Notes under the pieces: generated by a model | The model's database searches: none | What the model was told of the DNA's origin: nothing | The model's input: the letters and a program-made list of their open reading frames with translations, nothing else | DNA from: Antedon mediterranea | Taxonomy: Eukaryota; Animalia; Echinodermata | Direction of reading: 5' to 3' | NCBI RefSeq assembly: GCF_964355755.1 | Contig: NC_092675.1 | Span: 28,616,912-28,680,911, forward strand | Length of the DNA stretch: 64,000 nucleotides | Shown here: one piece after another, positions 7,087-61,804 of the stretch | How positions within the stretch are numbered: position 1 is the stretch's first letter | Layout: each line of letters starts with the position of its first letter | Made by a program: the position numbers and the translations under genes

Positions 7087-7158
7087 AACTTTGTATAACA
7101 ACCAAATTAGTAATTTACCAGCTGATATATTTAATGGATTGGGTAATTTGCTATACTT
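7087..7158 (+). CDS. LRR exon A (72 bp): TLYNNQISNLPADIFNGLGNLLYL
   Basis: ttgcag acceptor, gtaagt donor, typical 24-aa LRR consensus. Confidence 0.85.
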
Positions 7159-7543
7159 GTAAGTATGTTTGTACACATTGTGTTATTATATTCTTATTTC
7201 TTATTATTAATAATTGTTGATAATAATAACTGTAATTTATTGTAAACTAATTATGAAATACCGAATTTAAGTGAGTCATATTTAGAACATTCTTTTAGTA
7301 TAAATCAAAAATATTTAAGATGTTTGTTCTAACAAATTATTGTATTTAATGTTTTTTGTAATATGAATCTGTTTAAACTTGCAGTTTTACAAGATACTAG
7401 ATCATACGTAAATGTTTGGCTTAAAAATAAGTTAAAACACTAAAGAAAACAGGAAACAAAGTACTGTATAGTGAAATCATGGTAACGTCAAATGTAGATA
7501 AATTTCACTTTTAAATGTGATTCATTCGTGTTTCTTTTTTCAG

Positions 7544-7615
7544 GTTTTTGAGTTACAACCAATTTAGTAATTTACCAGCTAAAATGTTTCAGGGTTTGAA
7601 CAATTTGCAACGGTT
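7544..7615 (+). CDS. LRR exon B (72 bp): FLSYNQFSNLPAKMFQGLNNLQRL
   Basis: Polypyrimidine+cag acceptor, gtaagt donor, LRR consensus. Confidence 0.85.
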
Positions 7616-9910
7616 GTAAGTATGTTTGTATGTTTCATTAATAATTGGCGATAATAACAATTGTAATTTATTATAAAATAATTATGAAATGACCAATGTA
7701 AGTGGATCATATTTTGAACATTCTTTTGATATAAATAAACAATACTTAAGGTGTTTATTCTAACAAACTATTGTAGTTTTTTTTTTTTTCTTTCGTGGGA
7801 ATCGCCCACCTTTATTGTAATTTCTTCTCATTTTCATTAACATGACTTAACAGGTATTTATGAACGTATTCATTTACGAACCAATGTATAATAGTTAAAT
7901 ATTAAATTAAATACTTAAAACGATATAGATACATATTTGGCATAAAGGTAAATAGACTATACAGATGAAGCTATAATAGAAAAAAATACATTATACATAT
8001 TGCATATTTAAAATTTTACTGTACAGATAAATTAAAATATTGCATATATAAAAATAGTGAATGAAGTAAAATTAAGGTAAGTTCTCTAAAATGCTAGTTT
8101 TTACATTTTTCCATTTTTTGTCTGCTTTCATAAAATTGCATGCGTATTCATCTGTAATTAAGGATTTCAATTCAAATGCAAACAAATTCCATATCACTTT
8201 ATGTTTTTTCGTTTTTTCTAATTTTTCCAAAATGCATGATTTATAAATGCAAAATGTGAATAATGAAATAAGTTCATTTACAATTATGTTTCGTGTACCT
8301 GTTATTTTTTTATACCAATTGATAGTACCTTCTGTTGGAAAAAACTTAATTATGAGGTCATTAAATTTAAGCCATACATTTTGAATTGCTGTACATTCAA
8401 CTAGCATATGTAATTCACATTCAATTTCTTGTTTACACCTGTCGCATATATTGTTTTCTACTATTTTCCAATCTAAGCCTTTTTTTACAAGGTAAAATGT
8501 TGTGTAGTAATTTAAAATTAAATTGTACAATTTTATTTATGTGCTTAAAGTTGTGTATTTTATTTGTCCATACTTTATACCAATCTAGTTCAGCATTATT
8601 GAACACTACTTCCCATTTTGCCTCTGCAAAGGGATAGGTAGCAATTTCATTTACAAAATGTCTATAATAAAATTGACCTTTGTTCTCTTTTCGGAACAAG
8701 GATTTCTCAATTGTGTTCACCTGTTCGTCATCATATTGGTCTCTCGCTATAGATTCTTTCCATTCAACAGGTATGGCATTAATAAGCAACATGTATTCTA
8801 TTAGACCATTTTGTCTTTTGAATTATTTACTATAATATTGTAGCAGACCTACCACATAGCTTTTAAACAATTCAACATTTACTTTTAATTTGATTATTTA
8901 TACATCCTCTATATATCTCTTTATTTAACCTCACATTGACAGGTTACCTTCCTGTTACCTTCACTTTTCTAGCTAATGGATTTTAAGAATGTTAATGACT
9001 CTAACAGAAAACCACATTAATTCTCTTAATCCTAATTGGTCAGATGAGATGGGCCAAGCCCAATATTATCATGCACTGACCACATTATTACATTTACCAG
9101 CATCTTAGCTACACCGTTTATTGCATTGTCTTATCAAATATTGTATATTGTATATTTTATCTATTTATTGAGAATCCTCACTTGATTCACTTTGAATAAA
9201 TTGCATAGTTTACTGTATACATTTAGTAGTTTTATTTTACCGTTGTGCCGACAATTACTAAAGTGGTGACCCTCGACTTTCTTATACCGAATTTAACTTA
9301 AAATGGAAGGACAACAGCAACAACGACAGCTATACCGCAACCTCCAGCACAACCCCAGCACCAGGAACAACCTGTGGTGCCCGCTCCTGACGCAGCAACC
9401 GTCAACAGGCCAATTTATTCTGTAGCGTTGAAACTGCCTCCATACTGGCCCAATGATCCGATATTGTGGTTCACCCAAGTGGAAGCACAGTTCACAACGC
9501 GTGGGATTACAGTAGATGCTACAAAATACGCTTACTTACCGTAGTCGGATCATTGCAACCTGAAATTGCGCAGGAAGTTCGGGATCTACTTCTCAACCCG
9601 CCGACTGATAACAGGTATGTGAACTTGAAAGATACCTTAATACGTCGGACAACTGACTCCGACCAACAGCGCCTCCGCCAACTCCTGACGTCCGAGGAGT
9701 TGGGGGATAGGAAACCGTCGCAATTATACCGACGGATGTACACGAGAATTTAACCATGAAACGCTCGCAGCTGTTGCTTGAGTGAAAACCAAATATGCAG
9801 ACGCTATCAAGTCCATCTCTGGACACAAGATGGAAAAACAGACATACTTACGCACACTATGAAAAGAATCGTCATCTGTACGCGCTCGGATCTATCTCGG
9901 CATGCTCAAG

Positions 9911-10473
9911 CAGTGGTGGCGCCAGCGGGGGGGGGGCTACGGGGGCTCTAGCCCCCTCGTCGGGGAGCCTAGCCCCGCCGTCGGGGAACACGGGTACTTT
10001 TTGTCGGGGAATATAATAACAGTAAAAAGCGTTCGCGTTCACTTCGTAGCTAGCTTCAGCGCCTAGAAAACCGCGACGTTTCATTGACCGTGAGAGTACG
10101 TCAGAGTGATATTATGCATTCATTATTGCCAGCGATCTAACTTACTACTAAACAATAGTTAGGTTCGCACTTGTCTGGCGGTATCCCTTTGTACGAATCG
10201 TTCAACGTTGGGTCGAGACGCGTGATATCAAGTTCCATCCAGGGACCAAAATGTGTAATGTAGTTATTTTCCAGGCGAAGTTTACCGACGGTTACCGAAG
10301 GGAACACGGGTACTTTTTGTCGGGGAATATAATATACAGTAAAAAGCGTTCGCGTTCACTTCGTAGCTAGCTTCAGCGCCTAGAAAACCGTGACGTTTCA
10401 TTTGACTGTGAGAGTACGTCAGAGTGATATTATGCACTTTATATGCATCCATTATTGCCAGTGATCTAACTTA
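9911..10473 (+). mobile_element. Left end of a hAT-like non-autonomous element with an internal direct repeat spaced about 316 bp
   Basis: Starts cagtggtggcgccag+G-run; 9984-10144 is repeated at 10300-10473; right TIR not found. Confidence 0.55.
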
Positions 10474-11547
10474 GGCCCTGTTCAGACCCATGGCGTTAGA
10501 CCGTTTTAGCGTACGACGCTAAAAGAATGTGTGTCTGAACAGTTGGGGATTAGCGTACAACGCGTCGTACAACGGTTGTAGCGTTGTAGTGGAAAACGGT
10601 TGATAGTACCGTTTTAGCGTACGACGCTACTGTAAGTCAACGTTGTATCCAATCAGAACGTTTCCTGTTATGACGCGAAACAAGGTTTGACCCAGGCTGA
10701 CATCTTGTATCGTCAATGTGTGAGATGGATTTCAATAACAAAAAGGCCAGAATAAATAAGGCCTAACTACACTACAAATACAACTGTTACAAAGGCTACA
10801 AACTATTATCAACTGATTACCATTATATTTTCTAACAAATGACATAAATACATGCACCTTGTATTTAAACATAGGGACTACGATCCCATCCGCTTTTAGG
10901 CCTAGCTAGGCCTAGAGCCATTCACGCATTTCATTCAAGCTAAAAACTAGCGTGGGACATCAAGTCACTCATTCATCAAGGCAGACTAGACTGGACAAGT
11001 TTAATGCTGAAAACCCCCTAACTCCTAAAAAATCAGTAAACAAACAAGGGGAGCTGTGTCCCTTTTATTAGCAAGTTAAGGGTTATTTTCAACCGACTGA
11101 ACTAAAGAATATATATCTTTGACTGGACTGGATAGACTAATCACAATCATTGTTTTCTTCATCATTACGAGGCCTGCTTTATTTTCGTAACACAAGAGCC
11201 TGGGGAAAATGTTTTTTACTACAAAATAAAAACAATAGAAACAGAAATTTACTTTACTATATTTTTTTCTTAAATAAATGCTGAGGTATGTTTTATTTAC
11301 GGCAAATTTTGTCATAATTGTAGGGCTGAGATCTAGGCCTATATACAGTGGAAATAATGATGAAAACACGTGGGTAAGAGCACGTGAATATGCAACTAGA
11401 AACAACCTGGATGACGTACTTCCGTTGTAACGATAATCGTACGCTATGGGTCTGAACACCTCGTTTTTTTCTCTGCGGTTTGTAACGTGACCTTGATAGT
11501 AACGTTGTACGCTAAAACGGTCTAACGCCATGGGTCTGAACAGGGCC
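10474..11547. mobile_element. PIF/Harbinger-type MITE
   Basis: About 40-bp TIR ggccctgttcagacccatggcgttagaccgttttagcgtac; flanks tta/tca. Confidence 0.85.
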
Positions 11548-11893
11548 TCAGTAAGAATGACACCCCTGCCAGGATCAAAACAATGGCAACCAGCAACAGT
11601 AATTGAACATCACAATACACCACGATCTTATGTAGTAGAACACAATGGAAAGAAATATCGCAGAAACAGAAAAGATCTTAAAACAGCAACAAGTGCAGCA
11701 AACCGATACTTTGAACCAGATCTCACATATGATTATAACACCTATCCAACAACCACCGAGACCAAACAATCATCACCGGAAATAACCATTCCCAAACAGA
11801 AAACGCCAGCCAATGCTAAACCTGATACCAACGAACCACCAGCTTACATAACCAGAAGCGGACGCACCAGCAAGCCACCTAATCGGTTGGACC

Positions 11894-11923
<30 letters not shown>
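11548..11923 (+). mobile_element. Gypsy integrase C-terminal fragment, likely the inverted tail of element B
   Basis: VRM..W.PATV..TPRSYVV..YRRNR..L..TRSGR.SKPP.RLDL* followed by an A-run. Confidence 0.8.
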
Positions 11924-11924
<1 letters not shown>

Positions 11925-14800
11925 CATTAGGCGCAGGAGCCCCGGATAGCGTTACGTTTGAAAACCCCAAAAAGTGAGGTTTTCAACCATTAGCGGCATG
12001 ACTGATGTGAGTGATTAATATGTTTTACGGATGGTTTCAAGGACTATCCTACCAGTGGGCTGTTCACTGGTCAAATGATTGACACTTTGTATCACCGTTT
12101 GTAACTGGAGCTGTGACGACCTTTGTAACTGGAGCTGTGACGACCTTGCAAGAATACTAGGCCAGAATTTTTAATTGAAAATTGCCTTGGTATTAACATG
12201 GTAGTCCATGGGATTTAGCTAAAAAATGACCCTTTTCTCACACAAATTGCAAGAAAAGGTTTTTTTGATGAAATGTGTTCTTTAGACCCTACTGAACACA
12301 TTTATCAACGTTAGGACATTTTTCGACAACAGGAAGTAGCCTAATTTGCATAATTAAAAATGGCCGCCATTTTTAATAACGTACTCTGTATCTTGGAAAC
12401 CGCTAGTCACAGATACTTAATTATGGTGTCAAAATCGTTAGAATATATGTTTTTATATTCACTTTAATGAAAAAGTTTGTCCAAAAATGAATGGAAGTGC
12501 TATTTCTAACATTATTGACCTTTGACCTTGATTTATCATATCTCAGCAACCACTAATCGGAGATATACAAATTAGGGCTTAAATTGTTCAGAAACTACAC
12601 ATTTATATCCAGTCTAATGGCATGTTTTTGCAAAAAATGGCGGATTCTAACATTATTGACCTTTGACCTTGATTTATCATATCTTAGCAGCCACTAATCT
12701 GAGAGACACACAATATGGCTCAAACTGTTAAAAAACTACATATTTATATTTAGTCTAATGGCATGTTTTTGCAAAAAATGGCCGATTCTAACATTATTGA
12801 CCTTTGAACTTTGCACTACATAAAATCGCATAACTTTGAAAATATTGTACATATGAAATTATTTTTAGTGTCAAATTGTTTAGAACATACATGTTTCTAT
12901 AGAGTCCAATGATACATTATGTCCAATAATGGCCTATTGTATGGTTATTAACATTTGAACTATATTTGAAAATTCTTTAAACCCGGAATCTTCTTCATGT
13001 GGACATCCATTAGAACATGTGATTTGGCACTACTTGTTTAAAATATGGTGGTAATTTAAAGTGCATGTAACCAGTTGATTTAAATTAAATTTAAAAACTG
13101 AAAATATTCACTTAAAAAAAAAATATTAGACTATATATACATACATTATAGGTTTGGATTATTAATACATTTTTAATTCGGTCTTACATCTTACTCAGGA
13201 GAAAGTTGGTGTTGACACTATTAACAGAGCCAACAAAAATGTATTTTTTTTAAATGATATATTGTACATACTTTAAATAGGCCATGCCATTTTGCAGGTT
13301 TATTAACGTTTTTTTCAATTTAGTAATTTATTTTTTGAATTAAATGGCATATTCAAAAAAACAAATTTCTAAAGATTATTTAATTTATATTTTGCTAAGG
13401 ATAGCATCACTCTTGAGGGCATTCTTTTAGGTTGAAACATAGTCTTATTAAGAAGGCATTTTCTACTAATAGACGCATTGTTGACAACTGGAATTTTAAA
13501 AGATCGATATTAATGCAACATATTTAGTTTAGTTTAATTAATTGGCTATCGAGACTCATAATTAGGCTGACCACCACTTGCAATATTTTCGCCGTATACA
13601 GTAAAAACCTCAGTTTCTTATGGAATTTATTTATTTATTTCAATAACCATATACAGTACGACTACTAGTTGGTGTATAGTTTTTAACCTTCTATAACTTG
13701 TTTTTTTACTTTTTTTACGTGAATGTATTGTGTATGTACCATGTTTCTATGTGGTTTAATTTTTACCATTTTTTAACCATCAATTTTAATGCTTTTAATA
13801 TAAATATCTTGTAATTCAGCTTCAGCTGCGAAAACGATAAGAAATAAACTAAACAAACGTGTAAACTTGTAGGCAGTTTATGGATGAATGCAATAGTTTA
13901 TGCTTATAAATTTAATGTACCATGGCCTACTTTAAACTAAACATAATAAGTCAACGTTGCAACTCTTACATTTTAGAGTGCCAAATCACATGTTCTAATG
14001 GATGTCCACATGAAGAAGATTCCGGGTTTAAAGAATTTTCAAATATAGTTCAAATGTTAATAACCATACAATAGGCCATTATTGGACATAATGTGTCATT
14101 GGACTCTATAGAAACATGTATGTTCTGAACAATTTGACACTAAAAATAATTTCATATGTACAATATTTTCAAAGTTATGCGATTTTATGTAGTGCAAAGT
14201 TCAAAGGTCAATAATGTTAGAATCGGCCATTTTTTGCAAAAACATGCCATTAGACTAAATATAAATATGTAGTTTTTTAACAGTTTGAGCCATATTGTGT
14301 GTCTCTCAGATTAGTGGTTGCTAAGATATGATAAATCAAGGTCAAAGGTCAATAATGTTAGAATCCGCCATTTTTTGCAAAAACATGCCATTAGACTGGA
14401 TATAAATGTGTAGTTTCTGAACAATTTAAGCCCTAATTTGTATATCTCCGATTAGTAGTTGCTGAGATATAATAAATCAAGGTCAAAGGTCAATAATGTT
14501 AGAAATAGCACTTCCATTCATTTTTGGACAAACTTTTTCATTAAAGTGAATATAAAAACATATATTCTAACGATTTTGACACCATAATTAAGTATCTGTG
14601 ACTAGCGGTTTCCAAGATACAGAGTACGTTATTAAAAATGGCGGCCATTTTTAATTATGCAAATTAGGCTACTTCCTGTTGTCGAAAAATGTCCTAACGT
14701 TGATAAATGTGTTCAGTAGGGTCTAAAGAACACATTTCATCAAAAAAACCTTTTCTTGCAATTTGTGTGAGTTAAAAGTCTAAATCCCATTGACTATGGA
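11924..14800. repeat. Non-coding repeat element containing a 795-bp near-perfect inverted repeat
   Basis: Arms 12237-13031 and 13977-14771; internal subrepeat of about 140 bp with tgacctttgacc. Confidence 0.85.
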
Positions 14801-15490
14801 GATAGAAACAAATTTTTCTATCTTTCTTTCTAAAATAAATGGTCACTACAATTTCAAACTAGGCTTAGTCCACCACCGTAATAATTACGAATCGAAACCT
14901 AAATTAAAATTGTTGGTATTCTTTGGCCGTTGTTTGATTAATTACATCTTCATGCCATGTTTTTTTTTTCTAATGATTTGGCGATACGCTCCTATATTAA
15001 TTAGGCCTACTAGCAGAGGGTTCGATGAGTTTTGAAAAGTTATGGAAATGTGGTCTAACATATAGCAATTCAGTTTTTTAAGGCCTTTCTTCCATGTCCG
15101 AGCCTTTGGAAATATTAAAAAGTTATATTAATATAATATATTCCGTGTTTTCATGTTTTAAGAAATTGTATATCATTTCAGATTTTTCGCGATGCGTTTT
15201 TATTTGTTTCGCGCTTCGTCTTGTTGGCAAAAGTAACCCTCGACTTCCGCTCGAGCTTTCTCCGTACATACCGATAATTAATATGATTATTCATTTCATT
15301 TTTTGTACATTATTAAAAAATGAAATACAGAACTCCATACGGAACATACCCTGCTCTGAGAAAACACTTGTGGGCGATTCCCCGAATACGGCATGCTTTG
15401 GGGACTTTGACTTTGGAGTAAATCGAAACGTCAAGCAACTCAACAGTTCTTTTCAGAACTCTGGGAGTGAGTTGCCATGTTTTGATCATA

Positions 15491-16194
15491 GGGCGCGTTT
15501 ATACAACACGCTATTACACGCATATTCTACACGCCTACGAAAAGTGTGTTGTATAACAACAAAGGTCGTGTTTATACAACACCCTAAATTTGAACACGGC
15601 TTTAATTTTTAGCGTGTTGTTCGGACCGAGGTCAACCCACCTTAACGTTTGCTGTTATACTAGAAATCACGATACCGTGTTGTACCGGAAGTTTCATCAA
15701 CACGCAGTGCATGCTAGGATAAAAGGTCAAATCGTTGATCGCTTGAATTGAATTGTTGGCTGGGTTGTCAACAAATCATCGTCGCCTCCTCGCTGTCCGA
15801 TGTATTCGCGCGGTTTTTACCGTTTTCATTATTGTATTCGTTCACGTTTGCATTGTTGTTTATTTTGTTCTCGGTTCATTTATATTAATAAAAGTTATTT
15901 TAAGGGTTTCATTGTTTCATCTATACACTATGGAAGAAGATGCCATTTTTGCGATGTTATTTTTTATTCTGTTTGGAGTGGGAAACGATAGTCTATAGAG
16001 GCCTACTACCACTACGAGTTGGCCCTACCAGGCTAGGCGTAAGACGTGGTAGGAGGATGATTGCTGGCAGCAAAGCAGCAATAAATGGGCCCAATCTTGT
16101 TAGACGTCGCAATCGCATGACATTACAACATTACAACACACTTCTCGTAGGCGTGTAGAATATGCGTGTAATAGCGTGTTGTATAAACGCGCCC
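15491..16194. mobile_element. Harbinger-like MITE
   Basis: TIR gggcgcgtttatacaacacgctattacacgcatattctacacgcctacga at both ends. Confidence 0.85.
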
Positions 16195-16348
16195 AAAGAG
16201 ATTCCGTGTAATGAGATTTTAATTGCAAAAAAGGCTACTTGGCTGAATCCTAAAATTTGGTGGATTCCCGGTCGCCGTTACCGTGTTGGAAGTGTCCTCA
16301 GGGTATATTTTGACCTCTCGTTAAAACAGGTCGTAATATCAATCATTG

Positions 16349-16877
16349 CTAACAAGATTGGGCCCATTTATTGCTGCTTCGCTGCCAGCAATCATCCTCC
16401 TACCACGTCTTACGCCTAGCCTAGTGGGGCCAACTCGTAGTGGTAGTAGGCCTCTATCGTTTCCCGCTCCAAACAGAATTAAAAAAATAACATCGCAAAA
16501 ATGGCACCTTCTTCCATAGTGTAAGATGAAACAATGAAACCCTTAAAATAACTTTTATTAATTTAAATGAACCGAGAACAAAATAAACAACAATACAAAC
16601 GTGAACGAATACAATATAATGAAAATGGTAAAAACCGCGCGAATACATCGGAGAGCGAGGAGGCGACGATGATTGTTGACAACTCAGCCAATTCAAGCGC
16701 GATCAACGATTTGACCTTTTATCCTAGCATGCACTGCGTGTTGATGAAACTTCCGGTATAACACAGTATCGTGATTTCTAGTATAACAGCAAACGTTAAG
16801 GTGGGTTGACCTCGGTCCGAACAACACGCTAAAAATTAAAGCCGTGTTCAAATTTAGGGTGTTGTATAAACACGACC
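16349..16877 (-). mobile_element. Inverted partial copy of the 15491-16194 MITE interior
   Basis: Reverse complement of 15564-16103 with scattered differences; TIRs missing. Confidence 0.85.
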
Positions 16878-18881
16878 ATAGTAGTGTTTCTGTTTGCTCC
16901 GGTCTGCTTGAAATCGTTGCTTGGTGTCTGTTGTATCATATGACTTTGGCTGTAGAAGTGTTTTGGCTGTAGGAAGCAGGTTTCATGGTCTTCGTCCCAT
17001 TAGTAATTGAGCGGGTGATAATTTACAGCTTGCTAGTGGTGTAGTTCTGTAATCTAGCAAGGCTAGATTTTTGTCATTGTTCTTCTTCCATAGTCGTTTT
17101 ACTGTCTGTACAGCTCTCTCTACCTCACCGTTTGATTGTGGGTAGTATGGTGAAGAAGTGCTGTGCTGTATATCGTAGTCTTTGCAGAATTTGGTAAACT
17201 CTGCTGATGAGTATTGCGGACCATTATCTGTTCTTATCTTTTCGGGTATCCCGTGCCGACTGAATTGTTTCTTTAGTTGTCTATTACCGTGGAGCTATCA
17301 GTTTTCTGCAAATGGTCTACTTCGATGTACTTTGAGTAGTAATCGATGGTTATTACGTAGTCTTGTCGTTCAAACTCAAAGAGGTCACTTGCTACTTCAT
17401 TCCATGGTAATTGGTAATTCTGGTAGTTTATATGATTTAAGTGGTTCAGTGTGTTGACGATTTTGATAGGTATTGCATAGCTGGCAATCCTTGACTAATT
17501 CTTCCACTTGTACGCTCATACCGGGCCAATACAGAGATTCACGTGCCCGCTGTTTGCATTTTACTATGCTCTGATGGGATGAATGTATTTGGTTAAGCAT
17601 GTTTGATCTCATGCTCGGTGGAACGACAATATGCATTCCTTTGTATACTATTCCATCTGCAACTGACAGTTCATCTCTTGCGGTCCAGTATTGCCTAATT
17701 GCATGTGGTGTCTCTTCTTTTGTGTCTGGCCATCCTTTGAGAATCATGCTGTGCAGTTTGTTTAGTTCTTTGGCTGTGCAACTTTGAAATTCAGCATACC
17801 TGACTGGTGATACTGCTATGTAGTCTGTCATGTTAATTGTGATCGGTTTGATATCTGGTTCTGTGTCTGGTAAGTTAGCACGGCTTAATGCGTCACCGAT
17901 CGCAATTTCTTTGCCTGGTCTGTAGTTACATTAAGGTCATACGGTTGTAGTCTTAACAGCATGTTTTGAAGTCTCATCGGGGCGGAGAGTATTGGTTTTG
18001 AATATATAGCTTGCAGTGGCTTGTGGTCACTTTCTATTGTTACTTGGTTTCCAAACACATAGTGATGAAACTTCTTGCAACTGTGCACTATTGCCAGCAT
18101 TTCTTTTTCTATTTGTGCATATCTGCACTCTGTTGGGGTTAGTGCTCTTGAAGTGTATGCAACTGGATGTCCTTCTTGCAATAGCACACCACCCAGCGCA
18201 TAGCTGCTTGCATCACATTGTATGGTCACTTCTTAAGCTAGCACAGGTGTAGTGCTGCACATTTGTAGTAACTTGTCAAAGCTTTGTTGTTGGGGCTTGT
18301 CCCAGTAGAAGTCTATATCTTTGCTAGTAACTTTTCTGAGTGGTGCATCCACTTCACTAAGATTAGGTATAAATTTTGCCAAGTATTGTATCATACCCAG
18401 GAATCTTCGTACCTCTTCTTTTGATTGAGGCATTGGCATCTCAGTTAGAGCCTTTATCTTATCTGGATCAGGTTGAAGACCATCTGTTGACAAGATATGA
18501 CCAACATATTTGACTTTGTGTTTCTTCACTTGACATTTTGAAAAGTTTAGCTTTAGGTTCCAATTGGTAGCTCTGTCTACTACCTTTCTCATAATTTCAT
18601 CGTGGTGTGTCTCATCTCTGCCTGCAATTAGTATATCGTTCATGACTGCTCTAGCACCTTCAATTCCCTCTAACATGTTATCCATTATCTTTTGAAAGAC
18701 TTCTGGTGCACTCTTTATCCCAAATGGTAATCTTAGCCATCGGTACCGTCCTATTGGGGTGTTAAACGTTGTCACCAGACTAGATTCGTAGTCCAGCTCA
18801 ATTTGCAGGAATCCAGACTTTGCGTCAATAACTGAGAAAATCTTTGACCCTGCTACTGAAGCTACTATTTTTTCGACCGTT

Positions 18882-19052
18882 AATTTCTTCTAATTGTGTT
18901 AATTTGATAATTTTAGGTTCAATTTTATATTTTCTTTTGTCCATTTATATACTGTATTTTGTTTACATTTATGTAGTTAAGAACTGAACCACTTTGGAAA
19001 TCAGTACATTGTATTGAAAGTGTATTTCAGAATAAAGAAAGATTAAATGAAT
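18882..19052 (+). mobile_element. Short retroposed LINE/SINE 3' end inside Gypsy RT
   Basis: 6-bp TSD accgtt; ends in aataaagaaagattaaatgaat. Confidence 0.65.
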
Positions 19053-20455
19053 ACCGTTGGAATTGGATAGTGTTTTCTTCTGATTGCTTTGTTTAGATTC
19101 TTAGGATCAGAGCAGATTCTTATTTTGTCGCCTTTGACTACAACTACCATAGAACTGACCCAGTCAGTGGGCTCTGATATTTTAGTGATATGTCCATCTT
19201 TTTCCATCTCAGTCAACTTATGCTTTATCTGCTTTTGTAAGGCAAGTGGTTGTTTCCTTGGACCGTGCACTACTGGTCTAACATTAAGGTCAATTTTCAG
19301 TGAATATTTCCCTGGTAGTGTGCCAGTTGTCTTTCTTAATTGAGGATAGTCATTGATGCTGTTTATACGCTGTATCAGCTGCAGTTGTTTGCTTGCTGCT
19401 CCTGATAAGATTGGTACTTTATCAGTTTTCACAACATAATACATTATGTCAACTGTACATTTCTTGTATGTGGTTGGTAATGTTATACAACCTTTCACTT
19501 CTAAGGCGTGACTGGTATACGACTGAAGTTTTAAGCTAGTTGGTTTTAACTTATGATTGAGTTTCTTATTCTTAACCCAACTATATGACACGATGCTTGC
19601 CGCTGCTCCTGTGTCGATCTGAGTGCGCACTGGCTCTCCATCCACTATCACGGTTTCATGCCATTCACTATTAGATGTTTTTCCAATAGCATTTATCACA
19701 TCGATTAGATGCTGATATTCATCCTGACTTTCAGTGTCACTGTCGGTTTCTGCGTACTGTTCTTCCACTTGGTGAGCACCTTTAGGATTGGTACCCTTCT
19801 TTCTGCAGACTGCTGCAAAGTGGTTAAACTTATGACATACAGCACACGTTTTGCCTTTAGCTGGGCATTTATTATGTGTGTTGTCGTAGCCGCATTTAGT
19901 GCATTTATTGTTTCTTGGTGACGTTTTATTGTACTGTTTTGGCCTTTGTTTATAGTTTGACCTTTTCCTAACCTCATGTATTTTTGCGTCTTCATCTTTG
20001 TTTATTATTACTTCCATACTTTCTTGTGATGTTTCATAATTCTGACCTATGGTTATGGCTTTGTCTAAGGTCAGTTCATCGCCAAGATCTAGACATTTTT
20101 CTTTGACCTTTGAGTGCAGGGCGTTGCAGACAATAGAGTCTCTTAATATTCTATCTTCTTCTTGGTAATTACAGTCCTTTACTAAAACTCTCAGGTCTGT
20201 GACAAAATCATCAAATCTCTCACCTTCTAATTGTTTCCTTCTGTGGAAATTTACTGTAGCCCTTATAGTATTCTTTTTAGGTGCTACATATGCATCAAAT
20301 TTAGCATACACGCCGTTGAGAGTTTCGTTTTCTGCTGGTCGATCACCTTCGGCTCGTGCCCACGTGAATGTACCATATACTTCTCATCCTTTGTCGCCGA
20401 TGTAGGTCATCATATAATTGACCTTTTCCACTTCGCTCTTTGTTGCGAGTGGGCC

Positions 20456-21361
20456 TGTCACACCAAAATCAGTCCGGGCCAAAATCGGTCCGGTGGACCA
20501 GTTTTGGCTGCCAAAATCAGTCCGGGAGACCATTTATGGCTGCCAAAACCTGTCCGGCCGGACCAATTTTGGCCGCCAAAACTGGTCCGGCCTGGATAAA
20601 ATCGGTCCGGGCAGTAGGACTGTTTTTGGCCGTCCGGTCTTACAAATATATGGTGCGCAAAATGAGTCATAATGTATATATCATTTAAAAAAAGGCCATG
20701 ATTAGTCATTATTGAAAACTACGGGGATTTATTTGTTATTTTAATATTATAAATTAAGCTTGTTTTTTTTATTATCATTATTAGTAATAGTAGTAACTCA
20801 TCAATAATTAATACTAATTGTTAAGCTTTTTGTATACAATATGTATCTCTGCCTGTTTTTAATCCATTTTTTCTTTTTTAACATCTTCGTTTCCCCATGA
20901 TGTTAAAAACAATTTAATTTATTAATTAGTTATGGTTAATCAATCAATATATCAATTCAATACAATTATTATAAAACAATTATCCAATATTGATTAGGCT
21001 GAGGAAGGAAAAAGGCCTCAATCATAAATAAAATCTAGCTGGCAATATCAGCGTCTCATACCCGTTCATGTGAGTGTGTGGCAGGCCGAAATATGAGTGA
21101 ACACCTAAGTCATGTTTTTAGATAAAATACATTTATTTATAGTATTTATCCAACAAGATAACTTACTAATATATATCATGGGATATTTTTCTAGCCATAA
21201 ACAACTTAAAACAGCATCATAGGCCTAGTAATTCAATTAAAATCGACAGAAGAAAAGCCCGGACCGATTTTGGCAGTGGCGGACTGCTTTTGGCCACAAT
21301 TTTAGAGCCAAAACTGGTCCGGCCGGACCGATTTTGGCCCCGGACCATATTTATCGTGACA
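20456..21361. mobile_element. Ginger-like non-autonomous DNA transposon
   Basis: TGTCAC..GTGACA termini, 4-bp TSD ggcc, subterminal ccaaaatcggtccgg repeats; interrupts gag. Confidence 0.8.
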
Positions 21362-29885: not shown

Positions 29886-30043
29886 CATCCACCCACATTT
29901 AATATATGTTATGTAAATGTAAATTATATATTTGATCTCTGGTGCGCGTGCGTACAACTGAGGACTAGTTGTGTTCCAGCCGTACCACGCCGAGAATGTT
30001 AAAGGGTCGTTATCCGATCGAGTTAAAGAACAATACCATGAAA

Positions 30044-30115
30044 GCCCCAGTGGTCTAATGGTTAGGGCAACTGCATATCAAGCAGACGGTCCGAGTTCGA
30101 GTCTCGGTTGGGGCG
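30044..30115 (+). tRNA. tRNA-like sequence, anticodon ATC, probably TE-borne pseudo-tRNA
   Basis: Acceptor GCCCCAG/TTGGGGC, A box TGGTCTAATGG, anticodon arm CTGC-ATATCAA-GCAG, T arm CCGAG-TTCGAGT-CTCGG, downstream T-run. Confidence 0.6.
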
Positions 30116-30225
30116 ACTTTTTCTCGTTCTCCCAGATATCCTCATCTTTATCGTTTCAAAAATTAATTAAATAATTTTCAGTGTATCACCGGGCGGTTTG
30201 GAATTTATTTCTATGCCTGTTGTGT

Positions 30226-30340
<115 letters not shown>

Positions 30341-32614: not shown

Positions 32615-32738
32615 CAACTGTCAACACAAGTTAATTCCTTGCAATCTGACCGACGGCACAACAGATATCAAAGTCGCAGCACAAGTCGACATCGAAATCG
32701 ATCGAGTGGTAGGCATTCATCTCCTGCTCAACCTGACA

Positions 32739-33825: not shown

Positions 33826-34242
33826 CAACCTGACAGTACCAATCGCTCACCTCAACATTCAAACAACACTCGTCAACTCTGTTGGTACCATGACAAATTT
33901 GGAGTAGGCCTAAATGCTCGAAAATGCAATCCGCCGTGTTCGGAAAGTATATTTTATCTATTTATTGAGAATCCTCACTTGATTCACTTGGAATAAATTG
34001 CATAGTTTACTGTATACATTTAGTAGTTGTTTTATTTTGACGTTGCGCCGACAATTACTAAAATATCATTAATTACTTTATATCCAGAATGTAACCATGT
34101 TTCAAAATATATTGATTTTCCATTAGTTGTAATATACCTATTTTCCCACAATTGTTGTGTTTTAATTTCTTCTACATTTATTGGATGTCGACCTAAATAT
34201 TGTTGATGTGTACCACATCTTTTAACGTTTCTACATAGAAGT

Positions 34243-38339: not shown

Positions 38340-38471
38340 GCTGAACGTCGCCTGCTGTTATCACATACTTACACACATTCTGCCAGCTGCTTCCTGCTGT
38401 TATCACATACTTACACACATTCTGCCAGCTGCTTCCTGCTGTTATCACATACTTACACACATTCTGCCAGC
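38340..38471. repeat. 42-bp tandem repeat, three copies
   Basis: cctgctgttatcacatacttacacacattctgccagctgctt. Confidence 0.9.
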
Positions 38472-38539
38472 TACTTTAGTTGAAAACTTTATCAAGACTA
38501 AAACAGACATAGAATATAACAAAGCGTAATATCACACTA

Positions 38540-44500: not shown

Positions 44501-45183
44501 GAGAAAATGATAAACGTGAATACAGGCGCACTGCTAACAGCCCAGTTGATAAAAAATTCAGCTATCAACCCTCGATACCGAGAGTGGACTGACGTCAAAT
44601 CAACCAAAACTAAACTAGTGCAGCTGAATATTCGATCATTGCGTAAACATCTAGCTGATATTAGTTCTGATTTCGAACTTATGAATGCAGAGTGCATCTG
44701 CCTTACAGAAACATGGTTATTGAAGAATGTCCAAATTGACATTATACCGCTACCAAGATACAAACTGTTCACATGTAGTGAAGGTCGTGGTAAAGGAGTA
44801 GCAATATACGTGTATCACCTCTTCATTCAGAGGCTAAGAAGAACTATCAAATACTAAAAATCGGCTTGTCAAATTTTGAACTCATCTGTGTTTATAGGTC
44901 TCCAAATAGTTCGATCACAGAATTTACAGAGGCACTTTTACGTTGTATATCAAACAACAAGAAAACCGTAATCTGCGGCGATATAAACACCGATCCTACA
45001 GGAAACAAATTATTTGAAAGTTTGACAAATCTTGGCTTCACGCAAATAATCAACGAATCAACGCACATAGAAGGTAAAATACTGGATCACGTGTACCACA
45101 ACATGGAAAATAACGTTGATCATTTCCTCTATCCAGTATACTATTCTGATCATGATGCAACTTGTTTTAGCTTCCTTGAATGA
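38540..45183 (+). pseudogene. Helentron OTU-ZnF-Rep-PIF1 helicase-APE polyprotein pseudogene
   Basis: OTU-like PDGNxFF..HFDVV; C2H2 finger; HUH motif VEFQKRGAGHIHG; YITDYYMK; Walker A GGAGSGES (K to E); IDEMSM, FGDLLQL, TVHKFQG; APE NIRSL, ETWL, YSDHDA; many frameshifts. Confidence 0.92.
39582..39745 (+). repeat. 45-bp coding tandem repeat inside the Helentron ORF
   Basis: aaaagttatcacgaatctcatcgagatgatatcagcg.taagaag, about 3.5 copies. Confidence 0.85.
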
Positions 45184-48095
45184 ATATTATTGATTATGTT
45201 TATGAATTGATTAAATGATGTTTTTATGAAATCTTATATTATAGTTTATTTCTGCATTGCTTTCATGAATATAATTTATTACCTATCTATGCTATCTATG
45301 TCATAATTTATCTAAATCAATGAAAACAAATGTAGGGTAACCCCAGATATATGAATAGGTTTACAAAATAAAAATAATGAACCCACCCTACAAAATCCTC
45401 ATCAAATCCGTATCGTCTATAAACCCATCCTGATGAAATCCAATTTATGGAATGAACTCACCCTGACAAAATCGTTATCGTCTAAATCTACCCTAAAAAT
45501 CCGTAGCATGCAATGAACTCAACCCTGGAAAATAAGCCGTGTTTCGTATCACTTAAAAAGGATATTTCTTCTTTTCTTCTTTTTTTAAAGGAAATTACTT
45601 GGAGATTCATAATTTTTACAATAATGTCATTTCCGGTTATGTGACGTCACTTCCAGTTTACGAAAATCTTCGGATTATAGACGTGTTTAGTATCTTTGAA
45701 AAGAAAATCACTTTGAGATTTCATAATTTACTGTAATTATGCCATTTCCGGTTATGTGACGTAACTTTTCGGAATATAGCCGTATTTGGTAGCGAGGTTA
45801 TTTTTTTTATTATAGCGAGTGTATGTGACGTTACATCCCGTCTTATTTATAACGTCATTACAGCTTCTTTTGCTGTACCCCGAGTATCGCACATTCGTGC
45901 TTGTTTATTTGGTATATCACACAATCCACACACCTTTTGTTTTATATTTGTTTAAAGTCAAACCAGACGACTTACAGAAAATATCAACTTCGTTAAAAAA
46001 GTATTTCAGACTATTTCCATCTTGTGTAAAAATTACCGTGTCATCAGCTAGTTGGGCAATCTTAATTATATTATTGTCATTCTTCTCTATGCTCTTTAGT
46101 GCAATACTTGTGCATTGAGGGTTATCTCTTACATTTACTGCCATTAATTCTACTTATATACTAGTATGAATAATAAAGCAGAAAAAAGACATCCTTGGCG
46201 TACGCCACATTTCATGTTAAAACTTTCAGATACATATCCGTTATTTGTTATTACGCATTCGGTATCTGTGTATATTGTTTTTATCCAATTAATTAAAGAA
46301 TTTCCAAAACCAAAGTGAACCAGCACTTTAAGTATTACATTTCTATGTAAAGAATCAAAAGCTTTAGCAAAATCTAAAAATAAAATTTCTCCAGGTTTGT
46401 TTTTGTTACTTGAGTAATTTAGTATGTCTTCAACTAATCTTACGTTTTCACCTCCAAACCTGCCAAATATATATCCTTTTTGGTCATGATTAATTATAGA
46501 TCCTATTATTTTTTGTAATCTATTACATAGAACATGTGTCATTATCTTATAGCCAACGTTTAATAGAGTTTATGGGTCTCTAATTATCAAGACTCTCTCT
46601 TTGCCTTTTTTTAAATATTAAGTTTATTATTCCTCTCCTTTGAGTGTTAGATAATCTTTAGAGGGATCGAGTATGAATAATTCAGTGCATTACATACAAT
46701 CACTTTAATATAAACCCAAAACTTAAGGTAAAACTCAACACTTAAGCCGTCTGTTCCAGGGCTTTTATTAATTTTTATTTTAAAGACTGCTTTTGTACAT
46801 TCTTCCTTCTTCGGTTAACAGTCTTTCACATTTAGAATTTTCTTCTTTTGATAACTTTTTAACCTTAGAATTTTGATAAGTATGTATTTATTCTTTCGAC
46901 TGGAATATGTTTATTTTTATATAATTTTTTGTAGTATTTAAGTTTAACCTGTTCTTCTAAAATTTCATCTATTTCTGTTGTTATTTTACCATTATTCTTC
47001 AACAAAGACGTAATATGTTTTCTTTTAGCATTATTCTTTCTAATCCTAAGAAAAAATTATTGTTTTCTCTTCTCGAACCATTCGATTCTTGATCTTATCT
47101 TAGCTCCGTCTGCTTCTATGGAGTATACATCACTTAACTCTTTTCTTTTTTTATCAATTTTTTTTCTCAATTTTCTCGTCATACAGTATATTTAACGTAG
47201 TGGTAAGCTCCTTAACCTCTTTAATTAATTTGTACTTATTCGAATTTCTTTCTTTTTTCTTTCTTTCACAATATTTACAAAAAAATTCTTTTATTTTAAC
47301 TTTTAGATGCTCCCATTGCAAATCTGGGGTTAAATTGTGTTTATTTTGTTGTGTATCTTTAATCATAGAGATTATACGTTCAACATACACATCATCTTTT
47401 AAAATATTGTTATTTAGTTTCCAGATACCTGGTCCTTTTTTTAAGTGGTTGGTGACAATTTTAAGAGAAATTGCCTGGTGATGGGATAGAATTGATGGTC
47501 TGATATCTGTAGTACAAATTTTTAAAACCGTTTTTATAAAGGGAGTTGGATACACACCTTATATCTAGTCTTCCAAAAGTATCTTTTTTTCCTCCAATTG
47601 AACTGGGTTTCATTCTTGTGGCATTCCCTCCATATGTCTATTATTTTTTTTTTATAATACATTTTTTTTAAACAGTTGGAGACTTGTCATATTTAGGCGT
47701 AGGTAGACTATTTCTCTGATCTAGATTATGTTGCAAAATGCAATTAACATCTCCTCCCATTACAACGTATTCATCTTTTATGTTACATAAGTTATCAATT
47801 TTTCTTTTCGAAAAAAGGAGGTTCTTTCTTTATAGTTGTTTGGAGCATATATATTTATAAAGTTATACATTTTTTTATTGTGTTCTAAATTTAAGATCAG
47901 AATTCTGCCTTCTTCATCTATATATTTACAAACTATTGTATTTAATAAACATATTTAAAGTGTTTTGTAAAATTTGAATCTGTTTAATCATGCAATTTTA
48001 CAAGACAATAAATCATACATACATTTTTATAAATGTAGGACTTAAAAATTATGTTAAAACTTTTAAATGTGATTCATTCGTGTTTCTTTTTTCAG

Positions 48096-48108
48096 ATATT
48101 TGACAACC
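48096..48108 (+). pseudogene. Remnant of deleted LRR exon C
   Basis: Acceptor identical to that of exon F (gattcattcgtgtttcttttttcag|atatttgac), then jumps to downstream intron-like sequence; exon body and donor are missing. Confidence 0.7.
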
Positions 48109-48223: not shown

Positions 48224-48295
48224 AGTATTGTTTAGCAACCAATTTAGTAATTTACCAGCTGATATATTTCAGGGTTTGAACAATTTGCAACTGTT
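48224..48295 (+). CDS. LRR exon D (72 bp): VLFSNQFSNLPADIFQGLNNLQLL
   Basis: tttgcag acceptor, gtaagt donor. Confidence 0.9.
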
Positions 48296-48648: not shown

Positions 48649-48720
48649 ATATTTGATAAACAACCAACTTAGTAATTTACCATCTGATCTATTTAATGGA
48701 TTGGGTAATTTGCAATACTT
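48649..48720 (+). CDS. LRR exon E (72 bp): YLINNQLSNLPSDLFNGLGNLQYL
   Basis: tttgcag acceptor, gtaagt donor; paralog of exon A. Confidence 0.9.
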
Positions 48721-49065: not shown

Positions 49066-49137
49066 ATATTTGACTTACAACCAATTTAGTAATTTACCCG
49101 CTAAAATATTTCAGGGTTTGAACAAATTGCAACGGTT
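49066..49137 (+). CDS. LRR exon F (72 bp): YLTYNQFSNLPAKIFQGLNKLQRL
   Basis: ttcag acceptor, gtaagt donor; paralog of exon B. Confidence 0.9.
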
Positions 49138-49273: not shown

Positions 49274-49345
49274 ATGTATGCATAACAACCAAATTAGTAA
49301 TTTACCAGCTGATATATTTCAGGGTCTGAACAATTTGCAATGGTT
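49274..49345 (+). CDS. LRR exon G (72 bp): CMHNNQISNLPADIFQGLNNLQWL
   Basis: tttgcag acceptor, gtaagt donor. Confidence 0.9.
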
Positions 49346-49767: not shown

Positions 49768-52704
49768 GGTTTTTTTTGTCTTGTGTGGGTTCGTCCCACT
49801 TTTATTATAGTTCTCTGTTATAAATATGATAATTTATATATATGCACATTTATGTATTTCTCTTATTTATAAGGTACATTGCTAAAAAAATACACATTTT
49901 TTGAACAGTATATACATAGGCTAAGATTATTTTGATGTTAAAAAGAAACCACATTTACATACATATACATTTTTTTAAATACAATTAGTTAAAATATGTC
50001 GATGGCAATAAAATGACGATAAAAATTGATTTAAAAAAAACGTACTTATGAAAAAGTGATTATTGTTGTTTTATTCTGTTCGTGTTCGTGTCTGGGTAGA
50101 GAGGCTATAAACTCAGGGGAAGAATATAAAGTATCTTCCCTTTTCACCAAGAAAAAATGGATGAGATGAAAACGAAGAATGCAAAACCTTGAAAAAAGGG
50201 TGTTTAGAATGGATAGGATGGAATGATATATATAATGAAAACCGTAAGGGAGAGTCCATACAAAGTGCAAGTCCAAGGTAATATTTTGGCTCTGTGTGTA
50301 TGCGAGACGCTTCATACCCGGATGACATAAAAGTAATATAGTTACTAGGCCTATAGACAATATATTTAAGAGATACAAATACAAAGCATTTTTTTATTTC
50401 ATTAATTTAAGGAGATTTTGCTTTATATCTCCCCATTTACATTGAGCTTTAAAGTAGTAGCACTTATACTCATTTTCAATTAAATGCTTTACTTCTGTAA
50501 TAAAAAGATTCCAGATCTTTTTTTCATAGTTGTTTCCTTTTTTTTCAGGTTTTGTTAATATATGCAACTTATATATAGAGAATACAAATAATGAAATCAA
50601 TGCATTATATTTGGTCTTCGTTTGAAAAGCTCTTAGCTATGACATTTTTAAATTTGAGCCATATCCATTGAATTACACTGCATTTATATAACATGTGTTT
50701 GTCAGTTTCAACCTTGTTTATACATTTATCACATAAATCATTACCTGCTAAGTTCCAGATTTTCAATCGTTTTTTACATGGTAGTATTCTATGCAGAAGT
50801 TTAAAATTAAATTGAGCAACTTTGGGTATATGTTTTAGTCTATAAACTTTATAGTACCAAACATTACTCCAATCAATGTCTACCTTACCCAGTTCTATTT
50901 CCCATTTTATTTATGAATTTGGTATTTTATCTATTAATAAAATGATTATAGAAGACGGTTCCTTTATTTTTAGTCGCGTGGAAGCGACTCTATAGTTCAC
51001 TATGTCGGTCGGTCGGTCGGTCTGTCGGTCTGTCGGTCCGGTATCGCTATGCGTTTTATCGCTTTCTGACCTTATCTTGATATCAGTTTAATCTAGCTAG
51101 GTCAATTTTTCACAGTATATTCCTTATGGCCAGGAATCGATGTGGTTATGTTTTCACGGTGCGCAATAAAAAATTACGCGGTCTACGCATGATTTAACGA
51201 AATCACGTTTGTAATCATATCTTCACAACCATGAATCACAATTAAATAAAATTTGGTATTTGGTAAATTTCAGGGCATAAATCATCATATGGCAATACAA
51301 TTACGTGCGTAGCGCATGTAACGCATGCGTACGCGCGCTTAAAATTTTCAAAATTTATTTTCGATGAAATAAGAGTACGTTTCAGGCAATTTTAAGCGTT
51401 TACAAAATTGCCATGAGTGCGCATATTTTTGCGTGCGCACTGCGCGTTAAATGTTATTGCGCACTCTTTTTGCCCGATTTCTGTTTTCTTGACTTACTTT
51501 TCATCTCGAAATTACGTTATACGAGCACGTCAAAAGTGACGGGCTACGCACGTGTAAATTTAAAAAAATATAAATGTTTTTAAACATTTCAACATTTTTA
51601 AACATGTTCAGTAATTTCGGTCAGTATAGTTCACTATGTCGGTCGGTCGGTCGGTCTGTCTGTCGGTCTGTCGGTCTGTCTGTCGGTCCGGTATCACTAT
51701 GCATTGTAGCACGCGACTTAATGGCTGTTGGCCTTGTTCATATAAAGTCGTAGACTAGGAATACTATTGTCTTCCTTTTTTGTATTATCTTTTTCAATAA
51801 TTTCTTTCCACTCTTTTGGTATGGCTTTTAACAATTGCATATATTCAATTAAGGCGTTATGCCTTTTATACAGTTTAGGAAATATTTCACAAGGTGAAAG
51901 TACTCTATCATTCATGTAAATATCTCCGATTGTTTTAAACCCAGAAGATAACCATACTTTAAAATACATAGATTTGTTGTTCAATATGATATGTCTGTTT
52001 TCCCATAATTGTTGGCTTTTTATTTTCATAGTAGTTTTGGTTTTACATGTATGATATTGTTTAATTTTACAACAGACTTCGTCATATTTCTATAAAATAA
52101 AGGCATACTGCCTAAGTTAGCATGCTCTTCTAAATTCAACTGCGTTATATTAACTGTATATTCAATAGGTTGGTAAAACTTTGGAATGCATTTCCATTTA
52201 CCTGGATCTGGGCTTAAGAGTCTCTTAACCCAGGTTAGTTTGAAAGATTCTATCACCGAAGTAAGATCTGGCATATTCAAACCACCTTCTTCCACATTTC
52301 TAATTAATGTTGTTTGTTTAATTTTTTCTTTTTTATTTCCCCAAAGGAAGTCATATAACAGTGTTTCTATTTTTGCAATTATTTCCTTAGGCACCTCAAT
52401 CCTTGATATTGCTAGTGTTTTTATAATAGTAATTTTACCAAAAAAACTTAGGTTAAGTCTTTTCCATAATTTTAATACATTTTCTAAGTTAGTAATTTTT
52501 TTCTCCCTATTTCTGTATTCACATAATTGTTTATCATAACCTACATGTATTCCTAGAAATTGTACTGGTTCACTGGACCATACAATATTGAATGGTTTTG
52601 ACATATCATTTTTGTTTGAACCAATCCACATACCATTTGTCTTATTTTTATTTAGTTTTAATCCTGACACTCTACAGAATAGATCAATTTCATCAAAAAA
52701 ATAT
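49768..52704 (-). mobile_element. L1/Tx1-type LINE #2, 5'-truncated
   Basis: 10-bp TSD tgacttattg (49758-49767 and 52705-52714); post-RT ORF2 (SGLKLN..K, FLGI, FLWG, GGLNMP, LWENRHI); short polyA. Confidence 0.88.
50967..51738 (+). mobile_element. HINE/DINE-1-like element, copy 1
   Basis: Subterminal IR agtcgcgtg/cacgcgact, (gtcg/gtct)n microsatellites, TT ends, no TSD. Confidence 0.8.
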
Positions 52705-57851: not shown

Positions 57852-57962
57852 TGTAAGCTAATGGTATGGCAATGTACAAACGCGTTACGTCGTGCACTGT
57901 GTATCGAAGTACGCTATACAGCAAAAGGGTACGAATAATGTTGGCGATCTATTGTTTGTATG

Positions 57963-60648: not shown

Positions 60649-61083
60649 ATGAGAGAGAACTTGTTCACGTCCGTCTCTCATGACATCCAATGACTTATTG
60701 TTTGTTTAAACTTTAGTGCTAATTTTTTAAACAGTGAACAAGTATTATGTCCCCTTAAATACATGGCTTCACTAACGACAAAGTCACTACAATTTGATCA
60801 TCTCCAGTTTTAGACAATGACTAAATTTGGCATAATCCAGTGAAGAGAAAATTCCAGTTGAAAAATTATAGTTTAAAAAATCCAGTTGGAATTAACCGGT
60901 TCGAATTTAAATTGGTTACTTGTTTACCGGTACAAAACTGATTTTAATTGATATTTTAAAATTACCATTTGATTTTCATTGGCGTCAACAATCAGTTAAA
61001 ACCAGTTTACCTTTAATTTTGTATTTAGGCCTACAGGTGTCCGAAGGGAATTGATTTGATTTTTACTTTTACTTTGTTAACAG

Positions 61084-61155
61084 ATATTTGGATAGCAACA
61101 AAATTAGTAATTTATCAGCTGATATATTTCATGGATTGGAAAATTTGCAAAAGTT
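61084..61155 (+). CDS. LRR exon H (72 bp): YLDSNKISNLSADIFHGLENLQKL
   Basis: aacag acceptor, gtaagt donor. Confidence 0.9.
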
Positions 61156-61286
61156 GTAAGTTTGTTGATGATCATCATAGTTGATAGTACTAAATTATTG
61201 TAATAATTGTGAAATTTCTAATGTAAGTTCAAATTAAAACAAATATTTTTCTCCTGGGAATGATTTTTGTTCTTAATTGTTAACAG

Positions 61287-61361
61287 ATATTTAGAAAACA
61301 ACTCTATAACTACCATAGAGTATGGTGCATTTACTCCATTTGCTTCATCACTTTTATTTCT
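61287..61361 (+). CDS. LRR exon I (75 bp): YLENNSITTIEYGAFTPFASSLLFL
   Basis: aacag acceptor, gtaagt donor; divergent 25-aa LRR. Confidence 0.85.
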
Positions 61362-61732
61362 GTAAGTACATCATTTTTATGTTATTATATAGATATATTA
61401 TTATAGATAAAAATACATACGTTTTTTTTCAATTACCACGTTGTCATGATTAATCAACTAATATTTAGTTTCACTCAAAGGAAATATTGCAGTCATTCAC
61501 CAGTATTTATAAGCAGTGAGTGCAACTATTGTGAATATTATTGATAACGTAGCTGGCATGAACAATACTATTTTCACATTTGCATACATAACTGTGAACT
61601 CATCATAGTACTTAAAAAGTAGGAAAATAAACTACAGTAATAAAAACATCAGTAAATCATTTACTTTACTTTAGACCCAGGATAATTTAAAATTGTCAAA
61701 TGAACACATTTATTATTAATATCATCAAACAG

Positions 61733-61804
61733 GAACCTGACATACAACAACTTGAAAGATTATGAAGACAAGACTTTTAAAGAGTTGGTAAATTTAACAC
61801 ATTT
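61733..61804 (+). CDS. LRR exon J (72 bp): NLTYNNLKDYEDKTFKELVNLTHL
   Basis: aacag acceptor, gtgagt donor. Confidence 0.8.

Follow-up and report, generated by a model that had tools for sequence, protein, structure and literature searches.

The genome of the feather star Antedon mediterranea (Echinodermata) carries, on contig NC_092675.1 of assembly GCF_964355755.1, a predicted G-protein-coupled receptor (GPCR) gene in which the leucine-rich repeats (LRRs) of the ectodomain are encoded one per exon by an array of near-identical cassettes. The gene lies on the forward strand of a stretch of 64,000 nt (positions 28,616,912 to 28,680,911 of the contig), which is called the window here and to which all coordinates refer. 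An initial annotation had described six symmetric 72-bp LRR exons (A, B and D to G) and the residues on either side of their splice junctions; the length and the phase 2-2 borders were confirmed, the listed residues were found to be exact, and a seventh exon, H, can be added.

The exons were located by scanning all AG...GT intervals and by blastn with exon A, and then by nhmmer on both strands of the window. All approaches agree on seven 72-nt LRR exons on the plus strand, namely A (7087..7158), B (7544..7615), D (48224..48295), E (48649..48720), F (49066..49137), G (49274..49345) and H (61084..61155); nhmmer gave seven strong matches over both strands and no eighth intact copy, the next best match having an E-value of 0.78. 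Exons A, B and D to G are each preceded by AG and followed by GTAAGT, and all are in phase 2-2; A is a variable cassette. Exon A is the sister of E (63/72) and B that of F (66/72), while H shares 54 to 60 of its 72 nt with the other copies. The nine nucleotide differences between A and E are spread over six codons, each one changing the residue. A further copy, exon C (48096..48108), is dead: its acceptor is intact and its acceptor region is identical to that of F (46/46), but the donor and most of the exon are deleted. Exons A, B and D to H are recent tandem copies.

The array is followed by two divergent terminal LRR exons, both on the plus strand and in phase 2-2: the constant penultimate repeat I (61287..61361, 75 nt), which is common to A. 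mediterranea paralogues and 72% identical to the homologue P0031 (E 1e-5), and the constant last repeat J (61733..61804, 72 nt). Phase-2 LRR exons also occur in canonical LRR-containing GPCR (LGR) genes. Exon K (62302..63289, plus strand), which starts just past the end of the initially annotated interval (61804), encodes the hinge and an intronless seven-transmembrane (7TM) domain (Pfam 7tm_1, E 7.5e-31). All 7TM motifs that were checked are intact, including DRA, CWFP, NPYLY and, in the second extracellular loop (ECL2), CLPL at K residue 198, of the form C-phi-P-phi. Joined together, the ten exons A, B and D to K give 545 open codons with no internal stop, and the donors of the nine phase-2 introns are GTAAGT in eight cases and GTGAGT in one. 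With the LRRs in frame with the 7TM domain and the ECL2 motif kept, the GPCR/LGR identity proposed at the outset is upheld.

A tblastn search of the window with the N-terminal parts of seven relatives found no signal-peptide, N-cap, LDLa, CTL or CUB exon (best E 0.10), although such a search could miss short divergent exons, and the 5' exons of the gene may lie outside the window. Upstream of exon A, positions 450-3000 hold about five tandem units of 500-590 nt each, in which no LRR exon was found. Contigs of the DNA-like sequencing run X2 match exon D, the stretches 48246-49058 and 49296-49767 (no differences) and the F-G stretch; hence D to G are not an assembly artefact, though X2 may be the source sample itself, so that its match tests the assembly and adds no independent evidence. 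Five letters diagnostic of exon B are present in a contig of run X1.

Two of the introns are long and filled with transposons. The gap between B and D measures 40.6 kb, starts with a poly-T tract and holds an antisense long interspersed nuclear element (LINE; 7776..47927, minus strand), which is split by about 36 kb of nested Gypsy-type, other LINE, Helitron and foldback elements. Antisense LINE pieces with reverse transcriptase (RT) and zf-RVT domains lie one at each end of the gap, the 3' zf-RVT match being weak (Pfam, E 0.007). The element is bounded by a 13-bp target-site duplication (7763-7775 and 47928-47940) that none of 2000 random windows matched as well, and without the insertion the B-C intron would measure 315 nt, its neighbours being 345-385 nt long. 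The G-H intron (11.7 kb) contains a second antisense LINE (49768..52704, minus strand) with a 10-bp target-site duplication (49758-49767 and 52705-52714), and beyond it further insertions and a duplicated intron segment extend to about 60700. Because the B-D and G-H gaps are transposon insertions bounded by target-site duplications, exons A to H are read as a single array split by transposons and as one gene, not two.

Among the inserted elements are a Gypsy-type retrotransposon remnant at 16983-20383 (minus strand), whose RT and integrase domains are interrupted by stops or frameshifts, a Helitron remnant at 39052-45183 within the B-D intron, with Rep, PIF1 helicase and endonuclease pieces, and two foldback-like elements. 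The first of these (12228-14780) has inverted arms of 804 nt that are 99% identical; the second (51003-57755) has arms of about 757 nt at 95% identity, between which lie a LINE RT and a weak zf-AD frame. A 41-bp identical repeat, at 49727-49767 and 60660-60700, lies inside the duplicated intron segment. A contig of run X1 connects 49726 to 60660 without differences; this joint was rejected as proof of an insertion-free allele, given that the repeat flanks the gap and an assembly graph could collapse there, and it represents either such an allele or a collapse.

The nearest relatives are crinoid proteins named GRL101-like at NCBI, with 7TM identities of up to 69% within A. mediterranea and 57-60% in Anneissia japonica. 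In a quick IQ-TREE analysis of 34 rows, drawn up without Lymnaea GRL101 itself, exon K clades with ten A. mediterranea paralogues (SH-aLRT 100), the sister group being three Anneissia proteins; this clade is nested among crinoid receptors bearing CTL and LDLa domains, with SH-aLRT values of 97-100 for the crinoid clades. The window gene is therefore classed as a GRL101-derived LGR, in a crinoid clade of which the available models have no LDLa. Of the ten A. mediterranea models, nine have an I-like penultimate repeat and all ten a J-like last repeat, while the number of internal repeats varies; most models of relatives look 5'-incomplete, so that repeat counts are lower bounds. Two relatives with a signal peptide and an N-cap, P0031 and P0001, pass from the signal peptide to the LRRs with no LDLa, and in P0031, as in the window gene, a single open frame joins the LRR ectodomain, the hinge and the 7TM domain. 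In two other A. mediterranea proteins, P0004 shows three near-exactly duplicated LRRs, and P0006 has a homogenised scaffold of its own and ends in an apparent LINE endonuclease, probably through annotation fusion.

The repeats follow the register LxxLxLxxN, in which codons x3, x5, x7 and x8 were taken as the concave class. Over the six copies A, B and D to G, four, five, six and three distinct residues occur at these positions respectively, and just 4 of the 1365 possible sets of four x sites are as variable. The codons interleaved with them (x2, L4, L6 and N9) are nearly fixed. The fold was examined on homologue P0031, standing in for the spliced protein of the window itself. In its AlphaFold model (mean pLDDT 75.9, about 90-97 over the LRRs) the strands at residues 67-69, 91-93, 115-117 and 139-141 correspond to x3-L4-x5, and x7 and x8 follow just past the strand; the intron falls within the codon for L4, the strand centre. 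It is established that ligands usually bind to the concave sheet (PMC4561518), and the four variable codons lie on this predicted binding face.

Several comparisons among the exons indicate that selection acted on these codons. Over the six exons, the proportions at the concave codons of nonsynonymous (pN) and synonymous (pS) differences are 0.64 and 0.23, against 0.13 and 0.17 at the other 19 codons. Pairwise, 97 of 180 concave nucleotides differ, three times the divergence of the intron flanks (323 of 1921 aligned bases, 0.17), and this threefold excess does not depend on any tree. Variable columns make up 11 of 12 in the concave class and 20 of 60 elsewhere. When three non-overlapping exon pairs were compared, 15 of 36 concave nucleotides differed against 11 of 180 others (Fisher 3e-7). 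A codon model with fixed site classes gave a dN/dS ratio (omega) of 14.0-17.0 for the concave codons over four trees (likelihood-ratio test against omega 1, p 1e-7 to 3e-6) and of 0.50-0.76 for the scaffold. The value far above 1 answers the dN/dS check proposed with the initial annotation; its size is rough, because there are seven short sequences, synonymous changes are few and recombination has occurred. It is likely that selection drove x3, x5, x7 and x8 apart, and germline diversification under selection is considered highly probable.

As a control, 202 homologues bearing a 7TM domain were assembled, of which 68 with at least four regular repeats were kept and 134 dropped. The ratio of concave to other-x variability is 3.3 in the window array (A-G; 2.8 for A-H), whereas the control has a median of 1.02 and a maximum of 1.71, in a crinoid paralogue, and none of the 68 reaches 2. 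Older arrays are saturated at all x sites; the control therefore shows a young, homogenised array in which four sites are already saturated, and is no proof that older arrays escaped selection. Outside the crinoid family, the LRR proteins P0063 and P0097 (Capsaspora kinases) and P0061 (amphioxus) have a milder concave excess, with ratios of 1.57-1.64, and a process like that in the crinoid array may operate in them.

The array also bears traces of exchange between its units. The A-B and E-F introns are identical over 344 of 344 aligned bases, bar three indels, while the exons flanking them differ at 15 of 144 positions. Exon A is closest to G in its 5' half (32/36) and to E in its 3' half (34/36), and exon E is closest to F in its 5' half and to A in its 3' half, the 5' margins for A and E being only 1-2 bases. 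These small data are consistent with unequal crossover, or conversion, whose breakpoints lie within the conserved core of the exons. Of the routes put forward initially, duplication and loss of exons (seven copies and one dead, C) and exchange between units are both evident here. It had also been proposed that each new exon pairing makes a new strand, and the mosaic pattern suggests otherwise: with breakpoints in the exon core, both strand halves move together with the intron between them, so that strand number and order change, and new strands from new pairings would need exon skipping or intronic breakpoints. New strand surfaces would hence come mainly from selected substitutions. The exon-versus-intron contrast of A/E and B/F was considered as a clean test of selection and rejected, as exchange breakpoints lie in the exons. 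Beyond the window, the X2 contigs that cover the exon core add up to a depth of about 5,000-6,000, where single-locus contigs have 53-64; this suggests some 100 exon copies in the genome, a figure that is an order of magnitude and not a copy number.

Known systems offer several points of comparison. GRL101, a type C2 LGR, was reported as a single gene in each ambulacrarian species, Anneissia included (Veenstra, 10.1101/2021.04.15.440029), and as carrying many LDLa repeats (PMC11863921, 10.1101/2021.04.15.440029). The window gene has a 7TM domain of that lineage and the short hinge, but it belongs to a multi-copy clade, its LRRs are young, near-identical and positively selected, and its relatives P0031 and P0001 have no LDLa. 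As regards the type C1 receptors RXFP1 and RXFP2, the best solved-structure match of P0031 is PDB 7TMW (E 5e-68), and the hinge Leu-Leu and the ECL2 motif C-phi-P-phi are kept. Unlike the window gene, RXFP has a fixed set of ten LRRs that do not resemble one another, binds a conserved hormone, depends on its LDLa and has introns within the 7TM domain; the phase-1 introns in TM2 and TM5 that mark the RXFP/LGR3 type (PMC11863921) are absent from the single exon K. In RXFP1 the LDLa module is reported to be required for ligand-driven signalling (PMC4561518), and the LRRs and hinge to inhibit a tethered agonist in ECL2, whose motif is common to all LGRs (10.1101/2022.01.22.477343). By alignment, residue 24 of exon K, in the hinge, is Ala where RXFP1 has Ser397, and changing Ser397 to Ala was reported to raise basal signalling even without LDLa (10.1101/2022.01.22.477343). 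The same Ala is found in 8 of the 13 crinoid relatives whose models have no LDLa and in none of the three that have one, which hints at how an LDLa-less receptor could signal.

A parallel in design is found in the LRR-ROCO genes of brown algae, which likewise are reported to place each LRR on a phase-2 exon of 72 nt, to include dead exons and to have four concave sites under positive selection, an immune role being proposed for them (PMC3341825, PMC11378527). They differ in that ROCO is an intracellular GTPase and the intron interrupts the repeat at another point; the same reports also describe alternative splicing and antisense exons within introns. In the window gene the C-terminal part is a 7TM domain rather than a Roc-COR GTPase, so that its output would be that of a GPCR, and nhmmer found no antisense copy on either strand of the window. 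The two arrays probably arose independently. The variable lymphocyte receptors (VLRs) of lampreys share 24-residue LRR modules and concave-face variation with the window gene; in lampreys an incomplete germline gene is completed by somatic assembly and there is no 7TM domain, whereas the window gene is a spliceable germline array in one open frame, with no incomplete gene filled from flanking cassettes. The region SudRes2 of the snail Biomphalaria is similar in its expanded GRL101-like paralogues, their link with parasite resistance and the structural variation between haplotypes (PMC12297450). There, CTL and LDLa are kept and the variation is by gene copy, and the available text of that report does not describe hypervariable LRR exon arrays (PMC12297450). 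The window gene is neither a VLR nor a ROCO gene, but a GRL101-derived receptor that diversifies as ROCO genes do.

On these grounds it is proposed that the binding domain is remodelled in the germline as one-repeat exons are tandemly duplicated, unequally exchanged and lost, that selection favours new residues at the four concave positions, and that about a hundred such exons in the genome would serve as a pool. The receptor family would sense fast-changing foreign proteins; a ligand on the concave sheet would relieve the inhibition by the LRRs and hinge, and ECL2 would then activate the 7TM domain, by analogy to RXFP1. The array is most probably spliced constitutively in the main, and the head-to-tail spliced exons of family members (see below) count among the support for this explanation. 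A non-self protein ligand is favoured since selection recurs at fixed sites, exons turn over, the ROCO genes are a precedent and a GRL101 cluster lies in the snail schistosome-resistance region (PMC12297450). Taken as a whole, this explanation, a germline birth-and-death family of LRR-GPCRs under diversifying selection that senses non-self proteins, is held with moderate confidence, and its least certain part is the microbial or parasitic nature of the ligand.

A number of observations weigh against it. The other x sites have an omega of 1.15-1.52, and purifying selection on the exons is therefore weak; seven exons of 23 codons offer few synonymous changes, recombination violates the tree model, and exchange breakpoints in exons could by themselves set introns and exons apart with no need of selection. 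In the 7 kb before exon A neither a signal-peptide exon nor an N-cap exon turned up, two introns hold 52 kb of transposons, and none of five RNA junctions of the family (see below) is identical to a junction of the window gene. Moreover, both relatives with a signal peptide lack the LDLa that RXFP1 signalling needs (PMC4561518), and GRL101-like transcripts are reported as enriched in the sensory tentacles of the starfish Acanthaster (PMC6267866) and the snail Charonia (PMC13403566), which favours a sensory role.

The last point leads to the strongest alternative, in which the germline diversification is the same but the receptors sense protein cues such as pheromones, settlement cues or gamete or self/non-self labels, with no immune role. 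A G-protein output suits sensory cells, and all the selection results fit this reading equally. Against it, a combination of exon turnover and recurrent change at four fixed sites is described as typical of host-parasite races (PMC3341825, PMC11378527), and the GRL101 from the sensory tentacles of Acanthaster carries six LDLa repeats, an architecture unlike that of the window clade (PMC6267866). A purely sensory role is regarded as rather unlikely.

It is less probable still that the window copy is a pseudogene in decay, invaded by transposons, or a reservoir of exons, and that it inherited its pattern from functional paralogues. The dead exon C, the 52 kb of insertions and the lack of a start exon in the window would fit such decay, as would the fact that a transcript-like contig of run X8 is only about 92% identical to the window 7TM. 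The alignment of this contig, of 1453 nt, begins precisely at the K acceptor (62302) and shows 80 differences in about 990 nt, the pattern expected of a spliced paralogue. On the other hand, the 545 open codons, nine canonical introns out of nine and the intact 7TM motifs speak for a working gene; 5' exons may lie beyond the window, and expression is possible despite large introns.

A third alternative, judged unlikely to a slightly greater degree, is that the array is read combinatorially, with regulated exon skipping producing many receptors per gene as reported for brown-algal ROCO genes. All LRR exons are in phase 2-2, the junction codon is the strand centre, ROCO genes with 72-nt phase-2 exons are reported to have multiple splice variants (PMC11378527), and the 40.6-kb intron might promote skipping. 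The frame symmetry, which had been offered at first as evidence for shuffling by splicing, loses its force since I and J, which are constant, have the same symmetry, and all nine donors are strong consensus sites (GTAAGT or GTGAGT). Runs X8 and X9, which are probably RNA, to judge by their intron-free junctions, come from two organisms and two studies. A search with exon G found in them four joints in which the back-step and the inserted letters add up to 72, and in X8 one loose end of the same form; in the DNA-like runs X2 and X5 no joint with a 72-nt period is among the matches listed, X2 having genomic spacings alone (208, 425). Translated by hand, the five exon-exon junctions read R, E, Y, W and R at x3 and Y, S, A, Y and W at x5; x7 and x8, too, have new residues, and the leucine at the junction is retained. 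One X8 contig continues into an intron. The closest junction, in the organism of X9, resembles G-H. Family transcripts thus appear to be spliced head-to-tail, intronless paralogues or retrocopies being another source of such junctions, and the expectation of transcription and splicing stands for the family, none of the five junctions being identical to one of the window gene. The contig junctions show no skip, though they cannot be assigned to one gene, and for the D-K stretch no joint between LRR exons is among the matches listed. Equally doubtful is a feather-star variable-receptor system in which a pool of about 100 exons would be recombined within the individual, by combinatorial splicing or somatic exchange, into cell-specific non-self receptors wired to G proteins. 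Finally, a process without selection, in which conversion homogenises the exon core and the drifting ends mimic hypervariability, is very improbable and already largely refuted: the variable codons all lie near junctions and the exons are mosaics, but the interleaved codons are nearly fixed, six of the seven copies agree in all of the first 12 intron bases on the donor side, and the concave codons differ three times as much as the introns.

The literature search met no description of hypervariable LRR exon arrays in a GPCR, nor of the feather-star family, unopened papers having been judged by title or the start of the abstract and subscription papers lying outside its coverage; the family may have been overlooked because most public models of its relatives look 5'-truncated.

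LGRs are familiar as receptors for hormones, with conserved ligands and a set of LRRs that is fixed. If the proposed explanation is correct, one LGR lineage would have turned into a family in which the binding face changes as it does in immune receptors, in convergence with the design of the ROCO genes of brown algae, and its members would provide a natural test of RXFP-like 7TM signalling without LDLa. To our knowledge, crinoid immunity has been little studied, and this gene would offer it a concrete receptor family to test.

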